This document shows, piece after piece, positions 3,224-55,463 of a stretch of DNA of 64,000 nucleotides. A program made the position numbers and the translations under genes. A model generated the notes under the pieces. The model was not told the origin of the DNA, ran no database searches, and saw only the letters and a list, made by a program, of their open reading frames with translations. The DNA is from an uncultured Candidatus Bathyarchaeia archaeon (GTDB lineage: Archaea > Thermoproteota > Bathyarchaeia > Bathyarchaeales > Bathycorpusculaceae), in the NCBI GenBank assembly GCA_964506875.1, contig CAZDNV010000001.1, positions 4,853-68,852 on the forward strand, given 5' to 3'. The first letter of the stretch is position 1, and each line of letters opens with the position of its first letter.

Positions 3224-3385
3224 TACGACTAATGCGCACGCCGTATTTTTCTGATTCGAGGTAGATCTCCAGCAAGAGAAGCCTAGCAGCAGTTCAAACC
3301 ATCTAGCTTATATTGCTTCAAGCCAGTGATAGGCAAGCGGTGATGTCTCTACTAGAAATGAGCTCGTAGAGATAGGTGAAAATCT

Positions 3386-5290
3386 GTGGTTATATCTTCT
3401 CTCAGCGACTCGTTGAAACGGACCAGCGATGCGCTTAGGCTTGGAGCATCCAGCCAAATCGAAGACTACGAGCGACGGTTCTCTTCGCTCAAAACGCTCT
3501 ATGATTGTCTACTAGTAGATCTCATCAAGATGAACTTCGACTGCCGAGAAGCTTGCGAAACTGCCAAAGAATTCTTCAAAGATTCAACCGCTCGATTTGC
3601 AGGCGTAGACGGCACCATGTACTCGCATCCTTTGTTCGACCTTGTCATCTTCTTCGGCGCTGCCTATGCTTCGACTGGCACGGTAGTATTCTCTGAAAGC
3701 GGGGGCGTGACAGTGAAGTATGATGAGAAAACCCTTAAGCAGGCCGCGGGAATCTCAAGCGTCGTGCCACTTTACGTTAATGACATTCCTGAAATAGATC
3801 AAGCGCTCTCTGAAGCGTCACAGCCGGAGGAGATCAATCCTAACAAGCCTTTGACAGACGAATCAATAGTCAACAACACCACAATAGCGAATTGGATAAT
3901 GACCTTCGCAGAGTACTATCTCGCATACAAGCTCGCCACGGATTCAACACAGAAGATACGCATAATCCTGCTGGATAGGAGCCTCTCGACAGAAAGAGCG
4001 AGCTTAATCTATGATACGGCTAAACGCGATCTGTGGAAGACGAAGAGCAGCATAATCGGATATGAGATAGATGATGAACCCATCGACGTAAATGACGTAA
4101 CGATCGCGAGACAATGTGTATGCAACCAAGCACTGGGCCTGCCTCCTCCAAGATCAGATTATCTGAGCTACGCAATCATTGAATTGGTGAAGCAGAAAGG
4201 AAAGCTGACCAGAGAACAGATGCTCATGGAACTAGGCGCAACTGACGAAGACAGAGCCAAGAGAACAAAGCGTTACTTGGCACGCTCAGTAAGAGAAGGC
4301 ATCCTGATCGAGGAAGACGAGACCTATTCTCTGAATCCGAAATATAGGACAACTTCAGAACGCATCAGGAGACTCGTAACAAGCTTGGGGGATCGTTTTT
4401 TCTTCTCCAAGGCATCAGAAACGAGAGCATCCAGCGTGATGAAGATTGTGAGGGATGGGAAGGAGCAGTGGCTAACCACAGTTGACATTGCCTTCCTGAC
4501 GCTTTTCACGCTACAGATGCTCATGGAAGAATGCTGGAAGAGAAAAATCCTGTTGATAGGCATAACGAAAGACACGGCTGCAAGGGACTTCAAGCGCCAA
4601 CTAGTTCCAATAATGCACAATGAGGGATTACTAACTAAAGCAATTCCTCATGAGGAGTTTGAGAAACTGCCGAACACTGACCGAATGATACTGCAGTCAG
4701 CCAGCGTTCTCAACCCAGCCAACATTAAGCCCCCGTGGAGCCTAGTCGAATACGATTCAGCCTTCAGAACAATGGTTCCAGACAGGCAGAACCGCAAAGG
4801 GCATGTTACAGGTGCCATAAAGAACAGGATAAGCCTCGAGAAAACCTTCCTCAAGACCTACGTGCAGCTTAGTCAGGCCAAGTCCGATCCGATGCTACGC
4901 AGCAACGTTCTACTCACAGACCGATTAGCTTACCCAGAATATGACTGCAAACCAGAAAACATGGTTAACCTTTGGAACGAGTTCGGCGGCGCCAAAGAAC
5001 CTATCCAGGTAATCCTATTCAAGAACAAGGACGTGCCGAACAAACTTCAGAACTTGACCATGACTATGCTGGCAGCCATGGCTCCTACTAGCATACCAGA
5101 AGCCTTCGGCCACAACAAACCTCTGTTCATAGCAGACAAAATCGCAAAATGGAACTACAGCCAATTCAAATGCATAGTAGACACGACGGCTAACTGGATA
5201 GTCAATAATCATAAATTGAGACGGTTCATATTCTACATGAGCACCTTCAGAGAGAGGAGAGCATCAATTGAGGCCGCAAGAAGAGAATAG
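3386..5290 (+). CDS. NurA-like (RNase H-fold) nuclease with a central winged-helix-like insertion
   Basis: 634 aa. GTG start preceded by AGGTGA, 6 nt upstream. NurA-type motif series in order: FAGVDGT (D75), FAEYY (E176), IILLDRSLS (D197), LIGITKDTAARDF, PLFIADKIAKW. 23-nt overlap with the downstream HerA-like gene. Confidence 0.6.
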   Translation: MVISSLSDSLKRTSDALRLGASSQIEDYERRFSSLKTLYDCLLVDLIKMNFDCREACETAKEFFKDSTARFAGVDGTMYSHPLFDLVIFFGAAYASTGTVVFSESGGVTVKYDEKTLKQAAGISSVVPLYVNDIPEIDQALSEASQPEEINPNKPLTDESIVNNTTIANWIMTFAEYYLAYKLATDSTQKIRIILLDRSLSTERASLIYDTAKRDLWKTKSSIIGYEIDDEPIDVNDVTIARQCVCNQALGLPPPRSDYLSYAIIELVKQKGKLTREQMLMELGATDEDRAKRTKRYLARSVREGILIEEDETYSLNPKYRTTSERIRRLVTSLGDRFFFSKASETRASSVMKIVRDGKEQWLTTVDIAFLTLFTLQMLMEECWKRKILLIGITKDTAARDFKRQLVPIMHNEGLLTKAIPHEEFEKLPNTDRMILQSASVLNPANIKPPWSLVEYDSAFRTMVPDRQNRKGHVTGAIKNRISLEKTFLKTYVQLSQAKSDPMLRSNVLLTDRLAYPEYDCKPENMVNLWNEFGGAKEPIQVILFKNKDVPNKLQNLTMTMLAAMAPTSIPEAFGHNKPLFIADKIAKWNYSQFKCIVDTTANWIVNNHKLRRFIFYMSTFRERRASIEAARRE

Positions 5291-7145
5291 ACGACGCGAA
5301 TCCTGCTTCACGGACTTTGAGGACAGATTCAACGCTCGACTAGCCGCCGTCATCCCAAGATTTTTCGCCACAGGCGAAGAATCCAGAGTTGCTGGCACAA
5401 GCGCAAGATACCAATGCCGCGTCAAGGTTGAGTATCAAAAAGACCTCATGGGGCTTCTGGAAGAAGGCATGCTGGTAGCCGTTAGGAACTTTAAGCAGAC
5501 TGACTTGGGCTTAGAGAGATACACGCTTATGGAAGTGACCAGAGTCTGGCCTGAGCATTTCGGGCTGCAAGGCTTGTCAGACCACGGGTACTACCCAATG
5601 CAGTTCGAGATCATCGAGCAGTCGGAAGATGATTGGCAAACAAACGACAAGTCCACGATGCTGATCCAGATAGATGCCATCCCAATAAACTATGACTTGG
5701 TTTTTAGCGAAAAGCGCGAGTTCAGATTTGTGAAAGGCTTCTCTTATCCGATTGTGGGGAGTTCCTGCCACATTCTAAACAGCGAAATGATAAACCGCAT
5801 GTATAACCAGAAAATAGCGGAAAAATATGGCATAGACACGTCAAAGACGGTGGCAGACGCTAGAGTCGACCAGCGGCTCGGCCTGATCAAAATGTTTGAG
5901 GCGAGCAAAACGGCCATTCCCATTTACGTGGATTTCGAGAAACTTGTGCGCTATCACTTCGGAGTTTTTGCCTTTACGGGTGGCGGAAAAAGTAACCTGA
6001 TGTCGAACATCCTGCGAAGACTCATACTGCATAACGGCAATACGAAGGTAGTGGTTTTCGATATAAGCTGCGAGTACATGTTCCTACTTTTGGACATGCT
6101 CGCAGACCCCAACGTTCCAGCAAAGGTCATACTCGAGCACAGGATTGACTCGCTTCAGCAATTCTTTGATTCAGTCGTCAAACCTCGAGAATACGAGAAC
6201 GACGAGCGCACCAAGTCGGGCTTGCAGTGCATAATGGATCAGGGCAAACTCGCTCACTATACGAAACCGAGACAGAAAGTGCCAACGTACGCCCAGTTCA
6301 TAGAAGATCTCAGCGCTCAAAGAAAAGACAATGTTGCCAGGCCGCATTACATGGATGCAATCGACAAAATCCACGACGCTACGCTCGCGTTTGTAGAAGA
6401 GCATAATCTTAGTGAAAGCGAGGAAGTAAACGAGGATTTCGTAGAATACATAGATCCGATAGCAACTGGCGCCGTGGATGAGTTCAAAGTCAGCGACAAA
6501 AGCGGGCTGTTCGCATGGGCCACCACGCGAAAAACGATACTTGACAGGATAAAGAAGAGAGATGGCGCTGAAGGGACAGACACATCTGGATTGACGATTG
6601 AAAAAATACGAGATCTGCTAGAAGACAAAACAACAAGCCTCATCTGCATCTCAATATCAGATCCCTACACGATAAAAGATCTGGCAATAAACCTCACACA
6701 AGATATACTGATGCGTCGAAAACGCAAGTTCGCCGTTAAGCCCTACATCCTTATCGTCTTCGACGAGGCACAGGAGTTCATTCCAAGCAACGCAGCAGGG
6801 ATAGATGCCAAGTGCTCCGTACACGTGGAGACCTTGCTTAGGCAAGGAAGAAAATATGGGCTAGGAGTCTGCTTGGCCACGCAACGCATCGCCTACCTGA
6901 ACACGAACGCCCTGCAGCAGCTGCACACCTATTTTGTTGGCACCCTGCCACGCCCTTACGATAGACAATTAGTCAGCGATACTTTCATTATAGACAAAGG
7001 CATACTGGAAAAGACTCTAGAGTTTGCACCCGGCGAGTGGCTGCTCTCAAGCTACATAGCCACAGGCATGGAAAACGTGCCAATATTCATAAAGGCAGAC
7101 AACGCGGAAGACGAAATCGAAAAATACCTGAAGGAAAATGCCTGA
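5268..7145 (+). CDS. HerA/FtsK-superfamily ATPase (DUF87-like)
   Basis: 625 aa. Walker A FTGGGKSNL, Walker B ILIVFDEAQEF, RQGRKYGLGVCLATQR arginine-finger region, N-terminal barrel-like segment. TTG start with GAGGAGA upstream. Confidence 0.8.
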   Translation: MRPQEENRRRESCFTDFEDRFNARLAAVIPRFFATGEESRVAGTSARYQCRVKVEYQKDLMGLLEEGMLVAVRNFKQTDLGLERYTLMEVTRVWPEHFGLQGLSDHGYYPMQFEIIEQSEDDWQTNDKSTMLIQIDAIPINYDLVFSEKREFRFVKGFSYPIVGSSCHILNSEMINRMYNQKIAEKYGIDTSKTVADARVDQRLGLIKMFEASKTAIPIYVDFEKLVRYHFGVFAFTGGGKSNLMSNILRRLILHNGNTKVVVFDISCEYMFLLLDMLADPNVPAKVILEHRIDSLQQFFDSVVKPREYENDERTKSGLQCIMDQGKLAHYTKPRQKVPTYAQFIEDLSAQRKDNVARPHYMDAIDKIHDATLAFVEEHNLSESEEVNEDFVEYIDPIATGAVDEFKVSDKSGLFAWATTRKTILDRIKKRDGAEGTDTSGLTIEKIRDLLEDKTTSLICISISDPYTIKDLAINLTQDILMRRKRKFAVKPYILIVFDEAQEFIPSNAAGIDAKCSVHVETLLRQGRKYGLGVCLATQRIAYLNTNALQQLHTYFVGTLPRPYDRQLVSDTFIIDKGILEKTLEFAPGEWLLSSYIATGMENVPIFIKADNAEDEIEKYLKENA

Positions 7146-7187: not shown

Positions 7188-7214
7188 TAGGCTTCGCGGG
7201 ATTTGAACCCACGC
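7188..7214 (-). other. tRNA-like 3' fragment (T-arm plus 3' acceptor strand), not a foldable full tRNA
   Basis: Reverse complement reads GC-GTGGG-TTCAAAT-CCCGC-GAAGCCT-A. This is a perfect T stem-loop plus a 7-nt acceptor strand. No matching 5' acceptor, D arm or anticodon arm could be built in the next ~150 nt. Confidence 0.35.
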
Positions 7215-7354
7215 TTCCGAATGTGCACACGCAGCTGACGCAGTGGCGCTCAAGACGCGAATAATGGCCGTGCACGAAGTCTCCGATATCTCTTTGGGTA
7301 GGATGGTGCGCGGTCTGCTGGTTTATGCTGCAAGAAGAAGACTGATTGTTGGTT

Positions 7355-12413: not shown

Positions 12414-13541
12414 CTATTCTTCATAGCTTGCATTTTGGATTAGAGTTAACCATTTGTTCTTACCTTTTACTGTAATTCCGCAGGCTTCCGCTGGAGTCTT
12501 TCCTTCTAGCCCTTCATGGCCTCTAATGTAATTGTGGAAAAGCTGGTATCCTGCCAAGATTGGAGTGTCATTCCTCTTAAGTCCTCTCATTGTCTTTTCT
12601 CTGTCTCGGATTTCTCCGTTGAAGCGTTCCATCTTGTTGTTGTTCTTGTCCCCTCTAATCGTGATGTGACGGATATGCTCTGTTCTGGGCTTTGTTTTTG
12701 TCCAGAACTCCTTCATGTAGGCAAGGTGATAACTGTGCAATCCGTCAGTAATCAACGTTTTTGGCTGTTTTCCAGCTACCTTCTTGCCCATTTGGAAAAG
12801 CTGTCTGGCATCATGCTTCTGCTTCGACTCTGCAACTTCTTGAGCTATCCAGAAACGAGTTTCATCGTCCATCAAGGCGAAGAGATATTTCATGTCGCCT
12901 TTTATTTTGACGTATAGTTCGTCTGCTCTCCAAGTGTCGCTTACGTTTGGAACTATCTTCTCAACATAATCTTGCATCAACTTAACATACTTGCGAATCC
13001 AATTGTAAACCGTCTGATGTGAGACCTCAACACCTAACAATTTCAGAGATTTCATCGTGTTTCTCAATGATTCACCGCTAAAGTAGAGTTGCATGGCGCT
13101 AGTGATTGCTTGTGGGTTGTGCTTCATCTTTTCAAAGCCAATGTTCACACTGAACGTTTTTCCACAGTCTTCACACAAGAAACGCTGAATATCCGCACTC
13201 TTGTTATGCCTCACTTCAAACTTCTTAATGCGTGGTGAATGGCAGTAGAGACAATTTGAAATGGCTACTTCCTCAATCACAATGTTCGCTCTTACTCGTT
13301 CTCTCATTTTGAGGCTAAACTCTACAGCCCAAATATGCTTGCACTTCACACTACGAAACCGATGATCTGGACACTCACAACGCCATTCATCCTCAGAGAG
13401 ACAAACAGCATACTCGCCGTTTCCACTCTGAGAAAGAACCCTGTAAGTAGAGGCATCAAACCGAATGATTTGACTTTCTTTGGCCCTTGCGATTTCTAAG
13501 CCCCTTGATTCGCGGAGATTCGTTGTTTGTTGCGCGTTCAT
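12414..13541 (-). mobile_element. IS6-family-type DDE transposase gene with N-terminal SWIM and Zn-ribbon modules (IS ends not defined)
   Basis: 375 aa. CECPDHRFRSVKCKHIWAV (SWIM-like). DDE region WRADELYVKIKGDMKYLFALMDDETR, LITDGLHSY, NNKMERFNGEIRDR match the IS6/IS26-type pattern. Confidence 0.8.
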
Positions 13542-13546
13542 TTTTA

Positions 13547-13599
13547 GGCACCTAACAGGTGTTAGGTACCTAATGCTATTTATGCTTTTCGGTACCTAA
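13547..13599. repeat. three copies of GG(C/T)ACCTAA plus a palindrome in the transposase/AbrB-like divergent intergenic region
   Basis: ggcacctaa at 13547-13555, ggtacctaa at 13565-13573 and 13591-13599. cctaaca-gg-tgttagg forms an inverted repeat, and ttaggtacctaa is a perfect palindrome. Confidence 0.5.
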
Positions 13600-13608
13600 A
13601 GTTTTTAT

Positions 13609-13824
13609 ATGGGAACTGTGGATAAGATATTGGGTACTAACTTGAGACTGCAAAAGCAACTATCTAGAAAAGTTGGAGAGAAGGAATACCCTAAATACGT
13701 TATTACCATTTCACCCAAACAGATAGAAAAACTGGGGTGGAGAGAAGGTCAAGATTTAGATGGAAAGATACGACAAGGCAAGCTTATAATCGCGGTATCT
13801 AGAGAAAACGAAGAACACAAGTGA
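13609..13824 (+). CDS. AbrB/SpoVT-like small DNA-binding protein
   Basis: 71 aa. The ITISPKQIEKLGWREGQDL..GKLII pattern is typical of swapped-hairpin AbrB/MazE-type domains. Confidence 0.5.
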   Translation: MGTVDKILGTNLRLQKQLSRKVGEKEYPKYVITISPKQIEKLGWREGQDLDGKIRQGKLIIAVSRENEEHK

Positions 13825-13828
13825 TCTT

Positions 13829-14716
13829 TTATGGAGAAGGATATGCTTTTTTGAACGCATCGCTTGCCAAACCCGATTGAGCTAGACCTTGGCTAAGACC
13901 TTTCGTAATAATGTCTAAGAATTTGTTGTAGTTTCCTGAGACTTCGGTTTCGGATAGTTCTCTAAACCCGCCACTGTTTATGACCGCAACTTTAGTCATG
14001 CCCCCAGTGTATCTGTCTGATGTTTTGACTTCGTTGATGACATATGATGAAAACATTGTCGCGTCTTCTACGCTCAGAGTTGACCAAGTTATATGAAAAG
14101 CATTCATGCTTCGTTTTATTTGTTTCATTAACAAGTCTGCTAACGCTGATCCAGAGCCAAGCGTTTCATATTCATCAATAGGGTTTACCCAACCAGCAGG
14201 TTCAAGCAAATATAGACCGAATGACATTTGACCATTAATATCTTCCAGTTTTGCTCCAAGAATGGACACAGGATGAAAGAACATCCCGACTTCAGCTAAT
14301 CCCAAGAACCTTGACCTTTCAACATTGTGTTTTCGGTGTAGTTCTAACAAAACACTCAAAACGTTTTCCCGCAATTGCCTATCGCTAAACCTTTGATCTC
14401 CGAGACCCTCAGCCAATTCCTCGACACACATTTTAATTTGAGCCGAATCTCCTGATCCAGCAAGGGCTAGGTAAGCTGGTTGTCTTCCCTTTGGTATTGG
14501 AAAAATCTTGTTTTCGTCCAAACTTTTCATGTCTAATCCTTTTTTGTATGATCCTTGGCTGTCACAAGCAAGCACGATTCCATCATTGCATTTTATCCCG
14601 ACTACTGTAGTCAAAGGTTTCACTTCATGTGTTAGGTATCTAAATCTTGGTCTTAAGCCTTCTGAACTATCTTCCTCTTTCAATCTGTCACCCTTATGGG
14701 TCAAACGAAGATTCAA
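13829..14716 (-). CDS. divergent proteasome-beta-like Ntn (Thr) hydrolase with a C-terminal extension
   Basis: 295 aa. TTVVGIKCNDGIVLACD gives Thr1 and Asp17 spacing. NKIFPI is a Lys33-like position, and LAGSGDSAQ and TLGSGSALA are present. The true start may be the in-frame GTG, giving MKPL|TTVVG. Confidence 0.7.
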   Translation of the reverse strand: MNLRLTHKGDRLKEEDSSEGLRPRFRYLTHEVKPLTTVVGIKCNDGIVLACDSQGSYKKGLDMKSLDENKIFPIPKGRQPAYLALAGSGDSAQIKMCVEELAEGLGDQRFSDRQLRENVLSVLLELHRKHNVERSRFLGLAEVGMFFHPVSILGAKLEDINGQMSFGLYLLEPAGWVNPIDEYETLGSGSALADLLMKQIKRSMNAFHITWSTLSVEDATMFSSYVINEVKTSDRYTGGMTKVAVINSGGFRELSETEVSGNYNKFLDIITKGLSQGLAQSGLASDAFKKAYPSP

Positions 14717-14909: not shown

Positions 14910-14986
14910 GCCGCCGTAGCTCAGCTAGGTAGAGCGGCTGGCTGTTAACCAGTCGGTCATAGGTTCAAGTCCTATCGGCGGCGCCA
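14910..14986 (+). tRNA. tRNA-Asn (GTT), CCA encoded
   Basis: Hand fold: acceptor GCCGCCG/CGGCGGC, D arm GCTC..GAGC, anticodon arm GCTGG-CTGTTAA-CCAGT, T arm ATAGG-TTCAAGT-CCTAT, discriminator G, CCA. Confidence 0.95.
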
Positions 14987-38193: not shown

Positions 38194-38363
38194 TGGTGGG
38201 GCCGGCCGGATTTGAACCGACGACCTTTACCCGGAAACAGTGCATAGGCGCTGCTCCTACGGGTTTCTCTAACTGCTCCAGAACTTCTTCATCCCGTTCT
38301 GGTCCGCAAACCCGTTCGCTGCTTTCTGGAGCCCGTCGTCATACCTGCCTAGACTACAGCCCC
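38194..38363 (-). tRNA. tRNA-Trp (CCA) precursor gene with about 93 nt of intervening sequence; CCA encoded
   Basis: Hand fold with exons 38363-38326, 38264-38259 and 38226-38194. Acceptor GGGGCTG/CGGCCCC, anticodon arm ACGGG-CTCCAGA-CCCGT, variable loop AGGTC, T arm GTCGG-TTCAAAT-CCGGC. Confidence 0.8.
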
Positions 38364-38402: not shown

Positions 38403-38495
38403 GCATTGTTCCCTTGGCCGATCCGACTTGCAGTAAGGCCCAGCGATCGTGAAGCGAAAAGTTAATGAGTGAAGAGTTCACGTGGTATTTGGGGT

Positions 38496-38612
38496 TTGCC
38501 GGCCATGGGGCGCGGGACCCACCCGATCCCATACCGAACTCGGAAGTTAAACTGCGCTCCGTTCTCGGCTGTAGTGTGGTCTTAGGCCACGTGAACCCGG
38601 GAAAGCTGGCAG
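38496..38612 (+). rRNA. rrf: 5S ribosomal RNA
   Basis: Contains CCCGATCCCATACCGAACTCGGAAGTTAAAC (universal loop B/helix III region). Terminal helix TTGCCGGC/GCTGGCAG. Confidence 0.85.
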
Positions 38613-38693
38613 CTCCACTCAAAATAGACATTTCTAAGATGCGGCTTAGTTAGCCAAAACTTATAACCAAGAGCTTGATAGTCTTTTCGAAAG

Positions 38694-48141: not shown

Positions 48142-49746
48142 TCACTCTTGTTCGTAGCTCTTGCCGTGAACGCGCTTTGATAGGTATACCGTGATTATAA
48201 GGAGAAGCCCTGTGGTAGCTGCAAAGATGTACACGAGGCTCCTTAGGTTCTGGGAGTCTTGAAACAGATCAGATCGATGCTCCTGCACAGAAGCATTCAG
48301 TGTCTGATAGCTCTGTTGGAGTTGGTCATAATTGTTGTGGAGAGCAACGTAGCTGTTGAGCAAGTCATTGTAAGTAATGTTCAGATCGTAAAGATTCGCC
48401 AGCAAGCTGCTAGTGAAGTTGCGTAGCAGGTCTGTGAATGTGCTGTTCAGGCTGTAGAGCTCCCCTTGCAGACTACTAGTATAGTTGCTCAGCAAGTTAT
48501 TGTAAGTAATGTTCAAACTGTCAAGGTCTGCTTGCAGCATCTGGCACTTGTCAAGCAGCTCATAGTAAAGACGCAGTATCGTGGAAGATATCACAGTGAT
48601 GGTTCGACATTCCAGTACATAGGTGAAGTACAGGTAGGTTTTCGATTCGTCTGAAGCACTAAGATAAGTTGGTGTAATCTCCTCCTCACCTGTAACGACG
48701 ATAAATGGTGGTGCCATCAGTCGATTAGGAATGATGATCCTGCTGAAGCCAACATTGTCGACCTCGCCGGAAACGTTGAAGTGGATCATTTTGTTTCCCG
48801 TTTCTCTGCCCACTTCAAATTCTAGTGCTGAAAGTGACGAATTGCAGATCATTGTCACATGATATGTTTCGTCTTTCGTGGAGACACTGAAATCATAGAA
48901 AGCTCCCATCAAGGGGTAGCTGTCGTGATCATTGGCGCCTACCGGGTACAACGTGTCTCCTATTCCGTTGTCATCCAAGTCTTTCCCTGAGTAGTCAGGC
49001 CAGCGATTGCCTTCGCCTCCATAGCTCCAGTAGTTTGTTGAGTCGCTGGACTCTTCAACTGAATCCATGAAATTGTTGTGATAAAAGATATTATCTTTGC
49101 TGGAGAAGGTGAGACTAAGCCCTTTCTTATTGTTGGAGACTGTGTTTCCTGAGAACACGTTGTCGCTGGAGAAATACAGGCTTAATCCTCCTTCGTTGTT
49201 GGAAACGGTGTTGGATGAAAAGGTGTTGTCACTCGAGAAATAGAGGTTCAGACCTACGTCATTGCCCAAGATGACATTGTCCGAGATTACGTTCTTGCCA
49301 GATGAATAGAGTAGAATCCCGTTATAGTTATTTATGACTTTGTTGTCGCTTATTGCGTTGCCGCTTGAAGCTATGAGAATCCCACTGACGATGGGGTTTG
49401 TGCTGTTACTTTTTATCGAAAAGCCTTTTACAGTCACGTTGTCAGCTACTATGCTGATCATGTAGATTCCGCCATGGCCGTATATGGCTGTGGCTTCCAT
49501 GCCATCTCCAATAAGGGCTACGCTCTTGTTGACGACAATGTCTTCGTAATAGGTCCCATTATGAACGTATATAGTGCCGCCTGGAAGAGCAATGTCTATG
49601 GCAGCCTGAATCGTACGTGCAGACTCGCTCGGAACGTGAATCACATTTTGGTCTGCCTGCACAGATATCTTCTGTATGAGCAAGTACTGCGCAATCGGCA
49701 AAAGCAGGATCATGAGTAATGTTGAGATTTTTCTCAATTCGATCAC
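48142..49746 (-). CDS. secreted right-handed parallel beta-helix (PbH1/NosD-like) protein with a coiled-coil stalk and C-terminal TM anchor
   Basis: 534 aa. Signal/anchor at the N-terminus. Repeated ..N.I..N..GI.L..S..N.. beta-helix turns. Three 22-aa repeats rich in N-x-T/S. Terminal TM. Confidence 0.7.
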   Translation of the reverse strand: MIELRKISTLLMILLLPIAQYLLIQKISVQADQNVIHVPSESARTIQAAIDIALPGGTIYVHNGTYYEDIVVNKSVALIGDGMEATAIYGHGGIYMISIVADNVTVKGFSIKSNSTNPIVSGILIASSGNAISDNKVINNYNGILLYSSGKNVISDNVILGNDVGLNLYFSSDNTFSSNTVSNNEGGLSLYFSSDNVFSGNTVSNNKKGLSLTFSSKDNIFYHNNFMDSVEESSDSTNYWSYGGEGNRWPDYSGKDLDDNGIGDTLYPVGANDHDSYPLMGAFYDFSVSTKDETYHVTMICNSSLSALEFEVGRETGNKMIHFNVSGEVDNVGFSRIIIPNRLMAPPFIVVTGEEEITPTYLSASDESKTYLYFTYVLECRTITVISSTILRLYYELLDKCQMLQADLDSLNITYNNLLSNYTSSLQGELYSLNSTFTDLLRNFTSSLLANLYDLNITYNDLLNSYVALHNNYDQLQQSYQTLNASVQEHRSDLFQDSQNLRSLVYIFAATTGLLLIITVYLSKRVHGKSYEQE

Positions 49747-52583: not shown

Positions 52584-55463
52584 TTGCACAAATCAAGTAA
52601 AGATGCTTTTGAACTACTTGTCAAACCAATTCGTCGGCTCATTCACGAGAAGGGCTTCCAGAAGCCAACGGAGCCGCAGGAGAAAGCAACACCTCTTATT
52701 CTTGACGGAAAAAACGTTCTTCTCATCTCTCCGACTGCCACGGGCAAGACCGAGGCAGCCTTTCTCCCTATCTTGAGCCTGCTTCTGCAAGGGCAACGGG
52801 GCATACCAGGAATCAAAGTCTTGTACATCACGCCTTTACGGGCTCTAAATCGCGATATGCTTGACAGACTCGAGTGGTGGTGCAACAACCTTGACGTCAA
52901 ACTGGCCGTTAGGCATGGAGACACCGAAACCAAAGAACGGACAAGACAGGCCAGAAGTCCACCAGATGTGCTGATCACGACTCCTGAAACTCTGCAGGCG
53001 ATTTTGTCTGGGTGGATCATGCGTCAGCATTTGCAGAGTGTCCGTTGGGTGGTTATTGATGAAGTGCATGAAATGGCTGACAGTAAACGTGGAAGCCAAC
53101 TTTCGCTGGCTTTAGAAAGGCTCAGAGCGATGATAGGAAGGGACTTTCAGGCTATTGGGCTATCTGCGACAATAGGTAGTCCCGAAAAGGTTGCCCAGTT
53201 CCTCGTTGGAAGCAATAGGAGCGTCGAAATCGTCCGAGTCCCTGTTGGCCGATTGATGAGATTGAAAGTTGTCTTGCCAAAACCTACGGATGAGGATGCC
53301 CAGCTTGCATCCAAACTTTACACACATCCTGAAGTTGCAGCTAGACTTCGAATCATTCGAGATTATATCAGTACGCATAAGTCAGTACTTCTGTTCACAA
53401 ACACTCGAGCAGAATCAGAGGTTCTGACAAGCAGATTCAAAGTATGGGACATTGATTATCCCGTTTCAATTCATCATGGCTCACTTGCCAAGCCTTCCAG
53501 GATCGCTGCAGAGAAAGGATTGAAGACTGGCGAGTTGAAAGGACTCATCTGCACAAGTTCACTCGAGCTAGGCATAGACGTTGGCAGAATAGACCTGGTC
53601 ATTCAGTACATGAGCCCGCGACAAGCTACGAGACTTATTCAACGTGTCGGCAGAAGCGGCCACAGCATCGGAAGAACGGCTGAAGGGATAATCATAGCGT
53701 TAGATTCTGACGATGCACTTGAGGCCCTAGCCATTGCAAAGAAAGCTTTGAATGAGGATTTAGAACCTGTTGAAATTCCACCCAAGCCCTATGATGTCTT
53801 GACGCATCAAATAGCAGGGTTGCTGCTAAAGCAGAGGAGACTTGGTTTTGAGGAAATATTGGAATTGTTCAAGGAAGCATATCCTTATGCAAATCTGAAT
53901 GTAGAAGACATTGAGAAGAACCTAAGGTACATGCATCAGCGTTTTCCACGGCTAGCTTGGGTTTCGGTAGAGGATAAGACGGTTCTTAAGCCCAGACAAG
54001 CAAAGGCACTGTTTGAATACTATTTTGACAATTTGTCCATGATCCCAGAACAGAAGCAGTTTCTCGTCGTTGACGACTCGGACAACTCTGCCGTTGGCGT
54101 ATTGGATGAAGCTTTTGTGGCAGAATATGGCAAGCCGGGAACAAAATTCATCATAAGAGGTAGTCCTTGGTTGATTATGCACTTGTCTGAGGACAAAGTG
54201 CACGTGAAACCCGTTGATGATCCTACAGGAGCTATTCCAAGCTGGATAGGAGAGGAGATTCCAGTTCCGTTTGGAGTTGCACAAGAAGTAGGTCACATCA
54301 GGCGCGTTGTTGAAGAGCAGATGACGAAAGGAGCGACACCCAGAGAAATCGCTGCTAAGCTAAGTGAGCAATACCCGGCTGATCAGGACACGATTCTAGA
54401 CGCTATGGCTGAGACCATCGAGCATGTGATGGCCAATTTTCAGGTCCCCACAGAAAGTCGGGTGATAGTTGAGGATTGGGAAGGGTTTGTCCTAGTTCAC
54501 CTGAATTTTGGCCTACTTACGAATAGGGCTCTGGCTCAACTGCTGGGGGAATTGCTCTCAGAAAAGCTTGGGTTCACTATAGTGGTTCAACATGATGCAT
54601 ATCGCATCTTCATCCAGACGATGGATGCAGCAGACTCTGATCAGGTGCTGGCTGCCTTCACGGAGATTAAGATGTTGTCTGAAGACGCTATCAGAGAGAC
54701 GCTGAAGAGAGCAACGGTTAAGACAGGGATATTCAAGAGGCGGATGATTCACGTCGCGCGTCGCTTCGGGGCCATAAAAAAGTGGGCAGACTTCAGCAGT
54801 GTAAGCCTTCAGAAGTTGACCACAAGCTTCGAGGGAACTCCCATCTATGAAGAAGCACTTAAGGAAGTGTTCACTAAGGATTTGGATCTGGAAAGACTCA
54901 TTTATGTGCTTGGTAAGATCCGTACCGGTGAAATCGTTGTTCATAAAATCATTAACGATGGAAACGCGACTCCTATTGCTCGAGTAGGCATCGAACGAAT
55001 AAGCATGAAAACTGATTTGATTCCACCTGAACGCATGCGTGCCGTACTCATAGAATCTGCGAAAGCGAGATTGCTGAATGAAGCTGGGAGCTATGTTTGC
55101 ACTAACTGCTGGAACTACGTGGAGGTGATGAGAGCAAAAGATCTGCCTGACAACCTGAAATGCCCAAGATGCGGGTCGACCACTATAGGCCTGATCAAGG
55201 TTGAAGAAGAGAGAGCTCTCGAGATGATCGAGAAGAAGAACGCCAAGCTCACGCAAAGCGAGCAAAGAATGCATGAGCAAGCACTGCAGTCAGCCAAGCT
55301 GATCTCCAAATATGGAAAGGCAGCTGCAATCGCTTTGGGAGCCAGAAAGATTCAGAACTCTGATGCAGTCGAAATCCTTAAGGAAGAGCCTCGTGTGACT
55401 GATAGGTTCTATGAGCTAGTTCTTGGGGCTGAACGCAAGATTATAAGCAGGAGATTTCACTAG
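52584..55463 (+). CDS. lhr: Lhr-type DEAD/DEAH (DEVH) box helicase
   Basis: SPTATGKTEAAFLP (motif I), VIDEVHE (motif II), QRVGRSGH (motif VI), long Lhr-like C-terminal region with CTNC..CPRCG. Confidence 0.85.
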   Translation: MHKSSKDAFELLVKPIRRLIHEKGFQKPTEPQEKATPLILDGKNVLLISPTATGKTEAAFLPILSLLLQGQRGIPGIKVLYITPLRALNRDMLDRLEWWCNNLDVKLAVRHGDTETKERTRQARSPPDVLITTPETLQAILSGWIMRQHLQSVRWVVIDEVHEMADSKRGSQLSLALERLRAMIGRDFQAIGLSATIGSPEKVAQFLVGSNRSVEIVRVPVGRLMRLKVVLPKPTDEDAQLASKLYTHPEVAARLRIIRDYISTHKSVLLFTNTRAESEVLTSRFKVWDIDYPVSIHHGSLAKPSRIAAEKGLKTGELKGLICTSSLELGIDVGRIDLVIQYMSPRQATRLIQRVGRSGHSIGRTAEGIIIALDSDDALEALAIAKKALNEDLEPVEIPPKPYDVLTHQIAGLLLKQRRLGFEEILELFKEAYPYANLNVEDIEKNLRYMHQRFPRLAWVSVEDKTVLKPRQAKALFEYYFDNLSMIPEQKQFLVVDDSDNSAVGVLDEAFVAEYGKPGTKFIIRGSPWLIMHLSEDKVHVKPVDDPTGAIPSWIGEEIPVPFGVAQEVGHIRRVVEEQMTKGATPREIAAKLSEQYPADQDTILDAMAETIEHVMANFQVPTESRVIVEDWEGFVLVHLNFGLLTNRALAQLLGELLSEKLGFTIVVQHDAYRIFIQTMDAADSDQVLAAFTEIKMLSEDAIRETLKRATVKTGIFKRRMIHVARRFGAIKKWADFSSVSLQKLTTSFEGTPIYEEALKEVFTKDLDLERLIYVLGKIRTGEIVVHKIINDGNATPIARVGIERISMKTDLIPPERMRAVLIESAKARLLNEAGSYVCTNCWNYVEVMRAKDLPDNLKCPRCGSTTIGLIKVEEERALEMIEKKNAKLTQSEQRMHEQALQSAKLISKYGKAAAIALGARKIQNSDAVEILKEEPRVTDRFYELVLGAERKIISRRFH

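Follow-up and report, generated by a model that had tools for sequence, protein, structure and literature searches.

A long, divergent NurA-HerA gene pair of Bathyarchaeia, probably a housekeeping nuclease-translocase

Do two overlapping genes of an uncultured archaeon encode a housekeeping machine for DNA ends, or a DNA-degrading module acquired from elsewhere? The genes lie in a stretch of 64,000 nucleotides (the window) from a Candidatus Bathyarchaeia archaeon (assembly GCA_964506875.1, contig CAZDNV010000001.1, positions 4,853 to 68,852). An earlier note, made from the letters alone, had read them as a NurA-like nuclease and a HerA ATPase, and we arrived at the same pair. From its sequence and structural model the first product, a protein of 634 residues (X634), is predicted to be a long, divergent NurA-family nuclease with an RNase H-like/PIWI fold. 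The second is, judging by its sequence, clearly a HerA of the FtsK-HerA superfamily.

The two reading frames share 23 nt (5268-5290), and we found them with the same coordinates and starts as before. The Shine-Dalgarno-like strings described in front of them, AGGTGA before the GTG start and GAGGAGA before the TTG start, were also located. The position of GAGGAGA before the herA TTG is consistent with translational coupling of the pair.

The HerA assignment was direct. Over residues 213-393 the second protein matched the Pfam family DUF87 (PF01935, 'Helicase HerA, central domain') with 62.1 bits against a cut-off of 23.2 (E 1.1e-16). Thirteen HerA models of PADLOC matched it as well, the best being PDLC01055 (E 2.6e-42, 143 bits), and these models align at residues 115-283, upstream of the ATPase core. 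Among PDB sequences it matched chains 9x1l_A, 8wiv_A, 8j4u_M, 8xau_A and 4d2i_A, which come from T. kodakarensis, S. solfataricus and anti-phage systems. The Walker A and Walker B motifs and the RQGRKYGLGVCLATQR block that had been pointed out in this protein were all present; within the block, RQGRKYG (residues 525-531) is the putative arginine-finger motif. Two earlier remarks on size need correction. The distance from Walker A K241 to Walker B D499 is 258 residues, and canonical HerA has roughly 200 residues between the Walker motifs, so only a part of what was described as an insertion of about 230 residues is an insertion. Both proteins were also said to be much larger than the canonical ones, which fails for HerA, with its 625 aa against the 592 residues of the T. 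kodakarensis chain 9x1l_A.

X634 was more difficult to place. Alone, it gave no match in Pfam (E<=0.1) and no useful match in NCBIfam, PADLOC or PDB sequences. Its close homologues, more than 1,200 proteins from Bathyarchaeia, are all unannotated and without Pfam domains. In a profile search of 1.8 billion cluster representatives, 440 clusters (50% identity) matched at E<=1e-3, many of them full-length proteins of about 600 aa with 21-30% identity. The family alignment contained 63 divergent full-length relatives with a mean identity of 25%, and 37 of these matched Pfam NurA (PF09376; best E 2.8e-11). The homology of X634 to NurA thus surfaces only through its divergent relatives. The top PDB match of the family profile was 3TAI, the P. 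furiosus NurA, with three collinear segments (E 0.0045). When the 63 members were searched against PADLOC and NCBIfam, no nuclease or defence model was matched, and the only models at E<=0.01 were four unrelated ones from PADLOC.

The predicted structure agreed with this assignment. A first AlphaFold model, built from 30 close homologues, had a predicted local distance difference test score (pLDDT) of 52 and was not used for the fold search. The second AlphaFold2 model was built from 150 sequences of two clades and reached a pLDDT of 85.4 and a predicted template modelling score of 0.87. In a Foldseek search of the PDB its ten best matches were all NurA (9x1m_G, 3taz, 3tai, 3tal, 2ygk), with E from 5.5e-8 to 4.3e-6 and probability 1.00. 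They include the NurA within the T. kodakarensis HerA-NurA-DNA complex. Together with the relatives that match PF09376, this bears out the NurA-like reading of the upstream protein, for which a search for the RNase H/NurA fold had been named as a check.

We then compared the active sites. In P. furiosus NurA (PfNurA), Asp51 and Asp126 coordinate Mn2+, and Glu105 lies close to the metal; mutation of Glu105 abolishes the nuclease activity (PMC3300031). His411 binds a second metal, at a position where Thermotoga NurA (E280) and TtAgo (D660) have an acidic residue (PMC3300031). In the alignment of the family profile with 3TAI, D75 of X634 falls on D51 (chain residue 71), D197 on D126 (146) and D584 on H411 (H431). 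For this numbering, all 20 extra residues of the 471-residue chain (construct 1-451) were assumed to be an N-terminal tag. E176 would be the equivalent of E105, with the alignment register about two residues off. The catalytic metal-binding set of NurA (D51, E105, D126 and H411 or an acidic residue) is therefore predicted to be present in X634 as D75, D197, D584 and, presumably, E176.

The five motifs that had been listed for X634 (FAGVDGT, FAEYY, IILLDRSLS, GITKDTAARDF and PLFIADKIAKW) are all there, and their acidic residues are near-invariant among the 63 sequences. The invariant positions are D75, E176, D197, K395, D396, D432, D457 and R513, and D584 is almost invariant; D75 is invariant in both of the alignments A2 and A4. 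Because the acidic residues D75, E176, D197, D396 and D584 are (near-)invariant at 25% mean identity, we judge from the alignment that the motifs are not due to chance. K395 and D396 may be extra residues in or near the active site.

Between core strands, X634 also appears to carry a winged-helix insert. In the model the region of about residues 214-345 contains an alpha-helical region and a beta-hairpin. The Foldseek matches that follow the NurA set are the winged-helix regulators IclR, MarR and PrfA, and the family profile weakly matched the Z-alpha, Lrp and SelB winged helices at profile positions 240-330, about residues 250-340. Together, the Foldseek regulators and the weak profile matches point to a winged-helix insert at this place.

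By sequence, the pair belongs to a deep, previously uncharacterised 'long NurA + HerA' subfamily, in which we define clades 1, 3, 4 and 5. The subfamily is defined by a NurA of about 570-680 aa followed directly by a HerA of about 580-630 aa, together with a NurA motif series ([AG][IV]DG[ST] / M.[LF][AS]E / LLD / G[IL].KD / D[RK]..L / [EY]D / DR / G[HY]..[PL]L..AD) tabulated for the 63 members. The window pair fits this definition, and in each neighbourhood that we examined HerA lies next to NurA. The window pair is a member of clade 1, a Bathyarchaeia clade. Clade 3 includes Nitrososphaeraceae proteins which NCBI names 'DNA double-strand break repair nuclease NurA'. Clade 4 contains other Bathyarchaeia, Nitrososphaerota, Brockarchaeota and Methanomethylicaceae, and several of its members are named NurA by NCBI; in the five loci of this clade that we examined, a NurA of about 600 aa is directly followed by a DUF87 protein of 576-596 aa. 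The Pfam lists of the clade-4 loci show no Metallophos, and SMC_N is marked only once, faintly, on an ABC transporter of locus L081. The neighbours of the pair in L081 are genes for RFC, Topo VI, RIO kinase and eIF-1A.

Between clades, full-length identity is 25-27% for NurA and 28-30% for HerA. The two proteins diverge in parallel, and the pair therefore evolves as a unit. A midpoint-rooted neighbour-joining tree separated clades 1, 3 and 4 from clade 5, with short and weakly resolved internal branches. Across the 1.5 Mb of DNA that was sampled, a small part of each genome, every locus had exactly one NurA-like gene and one for HerA. The Thermoproteota clades of the subfamily are stand-alone and chromosomal. 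As a separate observation, a MazE-antitoxin/PIN (VapBC-like) pair lies 0.3-1.6 kb upstream of three clade-4 pairs (L082 8995-9667, L084 5150-5801, L085 7785-8436), in one Brockarchaeota and two Methanomethylicaceae genomes.

To see how the pair is inherited, we turned to its neighbourhood. The location given before, between tldD-pmbA and an operon for 2-oxoacid:ferredoxin oxidoreductase (POR; porBADG), was confirmed by a Pfam scan of the flanks. tldD/pmbA lie upstream; downstream, on the opposite strand, come the POR genes (beta, alpha, delta and gamma subunits) and then a radical SAM gene. Relatives were collected by scanning one genome per GTDB species. At least 155 Bathyarchaeia species carry the X634 gene; the loci compared here are the best 80 matches, every one from Bathyarchaeia and with 62-76% identity. 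In about 76 of these 80 the next gene downstream is herA, and most of the exceptions are short contigs. The NurA and HerA genes overlap by 29 nt in 64 loci and by 23 nt in seven, which makes 71 of 75 related loci. In most loci that are long enough to show it, the POR operon comes after the pair, then the radical SAM gene and tRNA-Asn.

The pair also changes at the pace of its metabolic neighbours. Median identity to the window proteins was 69% for X634, 76% for HerA, 75% for PorA, 82% for PorB and 70% for the radical SAM protein, and the divergence of X634 and HerA correlated with that of the POR subunits (Spearman rho 0.46-0.74). The GC content of the two genes (0.476 and 0.483) and their synonymous codon usage are within the range of the other 30 window genes, so the composition check proposed in the earlier note gave no foreign signal. 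No relative was found by tblastn among 72,556 plasmids and 50,697 phage genomes, by a scan of IMG/VR with a profile of alignment A1, which reaches close relatives only, or by Foldseek in BFVD. The pair bears the marks of a vertically inherited core gene pair in Bathyarchaeia and not of an acquired island, because it is class-wide, syntenic with POR, co-diverging with POR, native in composition and without relatives in the mobile-element collections searched. In sister Thermoproteota clades, too, the two-gene unit is surrounded by genes for replication and housekeeping. On these grounds we dropped the suggestion that the pair was possibly horizontally acquired, and with it any reading of the locus as a mobile island.

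A further argument for acquisition had been a tRNA-like 3' fragment after the pair. This turned out to be a T-arm-like string, GCGTGGGTTCAAATCCCGC, of which 17 nt are identical to the T-arm of the relatives' tRNA-Ser(GCU). The match is about 20 nt overall and covers the T-arm alone, with a mismatched acceptor stem. Neither ARAGORN nor Rfam at its gathering threshold called a tRNA at 7190-7215, and a permissive Rfam search gave 14.1 bits (E 3.6) against a gathering score of 29. We rejected the string as an integration scar, since a T-arm match of about 20 nt comes here without a matching acceptor stem.

Canonical herA-nurA genes are linked to mre11 and rad50, and the window pair had been described as stand-alone. 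This agrees with our scans. The Pfam scan covered 16 window ORFs, a minority of the total, and showed neither the Metallophos nor the SMC/Rad50 family. By tblastn, no relative of one bacterial SbcD/SbcC-like pair (from L088) was found in the window and 89 loci (L001-L089), which is a weak test for distant archaeal Mre11/Rad50. The missing linkage is not unusual in itself, because nurA-herA of Deinococcus radiodurans is likewise unclustered with the Mre11/Rad50 homologues (PMC8708640). The coordinates of the pair and of the associated features are collected in Table 1.

Table 1. Coordinates of the NurA-HerA pair, its motifs and associated features. Positions are those of the window, except for entries that begin with a locus number (L), which are in the numbering of that locus.
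Feature	Coordinates	Strand	Remark
X634 (NurA-like)	3386..5290	+	634 aa, GTG start
AGGTGA, Shine-Dalgarno-like	3374..3379	+	6 nt 5' of the X634 GTG; read from sequence
NurA motif I FAGVDGT (aa 71-77)	3596..3616	+	D75, predicted metal-binding Asp, PfNurA D51 equivalent
NurA motifs II-III FAEYYLAY (E176; FAEYY aa 174-178) and IILLDRSLS (aa 193-201, D197)	3905..3988	+	D197, PfNurA D126 equivalent
Insert between core NurA strands (~aa 214-345), winged-helix-turn-helix-like	4025..4420	+	predicted from model, Foldseek and profile; boundaries approximate
GITKDTAARDF (aa 392-402)	4559..4591	+	K395, D396 invariant in family
C-terminal motif PLFIADKIAKW (aa 579-589)	5120..5152	+	aligned to GYLRPLQLAHHGVK of 3TAI; D584 at PfNurA H411 position, second metal site
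GAGGAGA, Shine-Dalgarno-like	5254..5260	+	within 3' end of X634 gene, 7 nt 5' of herA TTG
HerA-family ATPase/translocase (FtsK-HerA superfamily)	5268..7145	+	625 aa, TTG start
Walker A FTGGGKSNL (aa 236-244, K241)	5973..5999	+	inside DUF87 match
Walker B ILIVFDEAQEF (aa 494-504, D499/E500)	6747..6779	+	aligns with PDB HerA chains, residues 483-570
RQGRKYGLGVCLATQR block (aa 525-540)	6840..6887	+	putative arginine-finger/sensor region, within stretches aligned to HerA
T-arm-like string GCGTGGGTTCAAATCCCGC	7190..7215	-	not a tRNA gene; probably outside module
tRNA-Ser(GCU) of related loci, examples	L003 90-178; L019 9808-9896; L028 8449-8538; L032 8057-8145; L041 5899-5987; L016 3724-3812; others	-	
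Clade-5 loci	L086 9541-15284; L087 1672-13555; L088 3326-11828; L089 6475-15939; L090 972-12005; L091 7569-15399; L092 7540-17338		

Taken as a whole, we consider it probable that the pair forms a co-translated NurA-HerA nuclease-translocase complex, the Bathyarchaeia orthologue of the long subfamily and a vertically inherited core chromosomal pair, and that its role is most likely housekeeping DNA-end processing, such as double-strand break (DSB) resection and degradation of linear DNA. A housekeeping, end-dependent role is suggested because the pair is class-wide, syntenic, slowly evolving and compositionally native and has no self-marking partner. Our analysis shows the two folds, the conservation of catalytic residues, the gene coupling, the distribution and the synteny; the stoichiometry, the substrate and the biological role are inferred, with the solved HerA-NurA complexes (PMC8708640) and the NurA active site (PMC3300031) as templates for the mechanism. 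A HerA hexamer would engage a free DNA end and, at the expense of ATP (Walker A K241, Walker B D499/E500), drive the duplex into the channel of a NurA dimer. Inside, the two strands would be parted and then cleaved at an RNase H-like two-metal site made up of D75, E176, D197 and D584. The winged helix inserted in NurA probably adds DNA binding or the binding or recognition of a partner. The pair could incidentally degrade invading linear DNA in a RecBCD-like manner.

Several points weigh against this reading. X634 itself matches no curated NurA model, its TM-scores to NurA are modest (0.29-0.65 on the target) with a large root-mean-square deviation, and its modelled architecture appears strongly remodelled relative to NurA. 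The HerA equivalog models for DSB repair are far below their cut-offs (NF040819, 52.2 against 970 bits; NF040937, 36.2 against 800), and the defence-library model that fits HerA best derives from a HerA reported to co-evolve with type III CRISPR-Cas. Upstream of the pair the flank varies among relatives, and the sister clade 5 is horizontally mobile and embedded in defence islands. Finally, a canonical herA-nurA-mre11-rad50 set elsewhere in these genomes, if present, would make the pair a paralogue with a possibly different role; literature searches on Bathyarchaeota with Mre11/Rad50 or HerA/NurA yielded nothing informative.

How does the pair compare with known systems? In its working mode it would be, by analogy, a HerA-NurA complex: its HerA passes DUF87 but fails all equivalogs, and X634 has the NurA fold and predicted catalytic residues but fails the Pfam hidden Markov model (HMM). 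With the canonical archaeal HerA-NurA (S. solfataricus 2YGK/4D2I; P. furiosus 3TAI; T. kodakarensis 9x1l-9x1p) it has in common the NurA fold, the Asp/Glu/Asp metal positions, an FtsK-HerA ATPase and adjacent, co-oriented genes, and these are the best structural matches of X634. The differences are also clear. Canonical NurA structures among the Foldseek targets have 319-433 aa, whereas X634 has 634 aa and the predicted winged-helix insert. X634 has Asp for His at the second metal site, extra invariant D396, D432 and D457, and no direct match to Pfam NurA. Unlike the canonical operon, the window pair is unlinked to mre11/rad50, and its HerA reaches 36-52 bits on canonical equivalogs with cut-offs of 800-970. 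The view that the pair is a lineage distinct from the canonical resection genes was therefore well founded. The bacterial pair of D. radiodurans (7F6D) is also stand-alone (PMC8708640), but its NurA is shorter (332 aa), lacks the insert and is only weakly like X634 in structure (7f6d_G, E 0.12).

HerA-based defence systems share part of this layout. The 'co-evolved' HerA/NurA of type III CRISPR (Shah et al. 2018, clusters 57/58; PDLC01055; PMC6546367) is also a helicase-nuclease pair and the top PADLOC match of the window HerA. In contrast to it, the window pair has no cas gene or CRISPR array nearby, it is class-wide and syntenic with metabolic genes, and its NurA family matches no PADLOC defence nuclease. 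No CRISPR-like repeat array was found in the window and no cas gene among the pair's neighbours, and on this basis we rejected a CRISPR association for this locus. The anti-phage HerA systems (SIR2-HerA 8wiv/8j4u; DUF4297-HerA 8xau; NCBIfam HerA_antiphage) combine HerA with an effector enzyme too, and their HerA is about as similar to ours as the canonical one. The effector in the window is, however, a predicted NurA and not SIR2 or DUF4297, the anti-phage HerA equivalogs fall well short (NF042943, 43.6 against 800 bits; NF042944, 45.2 against 850), and the pair lies outside a defence island.

An unlikely alternative is that the pair is a chromosomally fixed immune module, which would act alone in the 'capture and shred' of foreign, linear or unmodified DNA, perhaps sensed by the winged helix, and would be related to the defence-island clade and the type III CRISPR HerA/NurA pairs. 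It draws on the PADLOC match to the 'Type III coevolved' HerA (E 2.6e-42; model origin PMC6546367), on the winged-helix inserts that are typical sensors of HerA-anchored defence systems (PMC12839542), on the variable upstream flank with tRNA-Ser at varying distance in relatives and on the MazE/PIN toxin-antitoxin genes just upstream of clade-4 pairs. It also draws on clade 5, which is taxonomically promiscuous: its members include proteins from Nitrosotenuis, Thermoplasmataceae, Euryarchaeota, Fimbriimonadales, Anaerolineae, Terriglobales, cyanobacteria and Thermodesulfovibrio, with 40-55% identity among themselves.

The clade-5 NurA-HerA genes are accompanied by a DUF6884 gene in all seven neighbourhoods (adjacent in six) and by a TGT-family (DpdA-like) gene in six. 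Other neighbours include QueD/PTPS, DEAD and UvrD helicases, a PD-(D/E)xK protein, SbcCD-like, DarT-Macro, HepT/Pol-beta and AbiEii genes, as well as BrxC/D-like, SIR2-ORC, HNH, Dam methylase and integrase genes. DUF6884 has been described as a distant relative of YaaA/DUF328 (PMC11701544), and DUF328 corresponds to DpdC in the Dpd 7-deazaguanine restriction-modification system (PMC12839542). Judged by these seven neighbourhoods, clade 5 resembles a mobile, undescribed Dpd-like defence cassette of four genes in which NurA-HerA would be the effector. In the literature searched we found no report of NurA linked with TGT or 7-deazaguanine.

This picture does not carry over to the window pair. The Dpd system (DpdA, a TGT homologue, and DpdC, a DUF328 protein) and the HerA-anchored BREX-related capture systems are resembled by clade 5 only (PMC11701544; PMC12839542). 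The window pair and the 80 Bathyarchaeia loci are without TGT and DUF6884, and the effectors of Dpd and the capture systems as described are not NurA. A tblastn search with the clade-5 TGT and DUF6884 proteins gave no homologue in the window, in the clade-4 loci or in any of the 80 Bathyarchaeia loci, and we rejected a TGT/DUF6884 association for the window clade on this result. The survey for defence islands that the earlier note had called for was thus positive for the sister clade 5, while the window pair and the Bathyarchaeia loci show no such association. Against an immune module we further count that the surroundings of the pair, both in the window and in the 80 loci, yielded no TGT, no DUF6884, no cas gene and no CRISPR array, that the pair is class-wide, syntenic and conserved like enzymes of central metabolism whereas defence genes are patchy and fast-evolving, and that its composition is native and its family absent from mobile-element collections.

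A bolder conjecture, which we regard as doubtful, would join the two branches. The window pair might be the stand-alone archaeal branch of an undescribed HerA-NurA lineage in which the mobile members, clade 5, would supply the restriction effector to a DUF6884 (DpdC-like)-NurA-HerA-TGT (DpdA-like) 7-deazaguanine defence system. Bathyarchaeia and other Thermoproteota would have kept the effector without the modification genes, as a winged-helix-guided, end-dependent DNA shredder that acts in innate immunity as well as in genome maintenance and may take the place of the canonical HerA-NurA.

It is improbable, in our estimate, that the pair is a specialised paralogue beside a canonical herA-nurA-mre11-rad50 set, acting for example on stalled or reversed forks, in chromosome resolution or in DNA uptake or export. 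The great divergence of the pair from canonical HerA and NurA would fit such a role, and so would the weak NCBIfam matches to the DNA-transfer ATPases CedD and CedB and to TraC, the RFC and Topo VI genes near the pair of L081 and the paralogous HerA/NurA pairs known in Crenarchaeota (PMC6546367). However, the matches to the Ced and TraC models are far below the cut-offs, and a second gene for a NurA-like protein or a HerA was absent from the 1.5 Mb sampled from these lineages, a small part of each genome. In genome papers on related Nitrososphaerota a HerA-NurA pair, of this or another subfamily, is listed with the homologous-recombination genes (PMC5797428).

We give hardly any credence to a catalytically dead X634 serving HerA as a structural or regulatory partner, for example as a winged-helix DNA-binding adaptor, to which the failed Pfam NurA HMM, the His-to-Asp change at the fourth catalytic position and the large remodelled insert might point, since all acidic positions are invariant across a family of 25% mean identity and an acidic residue at the H411 position is normal in Thermotoga NurA and Argonaute (PMC3300031).

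Some observations concern the loci around the pair. In various Bathyarchaeia a tRNA-Ser(GCU) gene on the reverse strand lies upstream of the gene for the NurA-like protein, at distances that range between about 100 nt and over 8 kb, and the intervening genes are unrelated between loci. This region could be a hot spot of integration or rearrangement, which would explain the variable upstream flank. The window has tldD/pmbA at that position and no tRNA-Ser. The HerA gene is split into two consecutive ORFs in four Bathyarchaeia loci (L010 3593-5504, L034 8143-10061, L064 11835-13732, L080 5433-7564); the splits are frameshifts, caused by errors of assembly or by pseudogenisation. Between herA and porB, 20 loci have an additional gene of about 260 aa (e.g. 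L002 13790-14590, reverse strand), and ten have one of about 170 aa just upstream of the pair (e.g. L041 9410-9928). By eye both look like GNAT acetyltransferases, and they are convergent or ordinary-looking. GNATs co-occur with HerA and TGT in BREX-related capture systems.

Elsewhere in the window, an ORF for a DDE (IS240-type) transposase (12414-13541, reverse strand) and a stretch of low GC (0.41-0.43) occupy 12414-14716 and separate the radical SAM gene from tRNA-Asn (14910-14986). Most relatives have tRNA-Asn close behind the radical SAM gene, and the transposase stretch looks like a local insertion-sequence insertion specific to the source genome. At 38197-38363 on the reverse strand Rfam found a tRNA over 167 nt, probably intron-containing and missed by ARAGORN, which adjoins a stand-alone 5S rRNA gene (38495-38614, forward strand). 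A large Lhr-type DEAD-box helicase (DEAD, Helicase_C, WH_Lhr, DEAD_assoc) is encoded at 52584-55463 on the forward strand; it is repair-associated and unlinked to the pair. At 48350-48536 a unit of 55 nt occurs three times at a spacing of 66 nt, inside a NosD/beta-helix ORF (48142-49746, reverse strand), and is a coding repeat, not a CRISPR array.

That some sister archaeal members are NurA was already known from their names in NCBI or UniRef. What this analysis adds is that it recognises the Bathyarchaeia clade, defines the long subfamily with its predicted winged-helix insert, and shows the split into stand-alone chromosomal clades and a mobile, TGT/DUF6884-linked clade. Bathyarchaeia are among the most abundant uncultured archaeal groups in sediments. 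For their repair inventory the finding fills an annotation gap, as more than 1,200 'hypothetical', Pfam-less proteins of the clade can now be read as NurA coupled to HerA. Should the clade-5 cluster prove to be a genuine defence system, it would be the first link of HerA-NurA to 7-deazaguanine DNA modification. With its predicted winged-helix insert and all-acidic active site, and with both stable chromosomal and mobile TGT/DUF6884 forms, the long subfamily would be a natural system for studying how one nuclease-translocase engine is used for repair or for defence.

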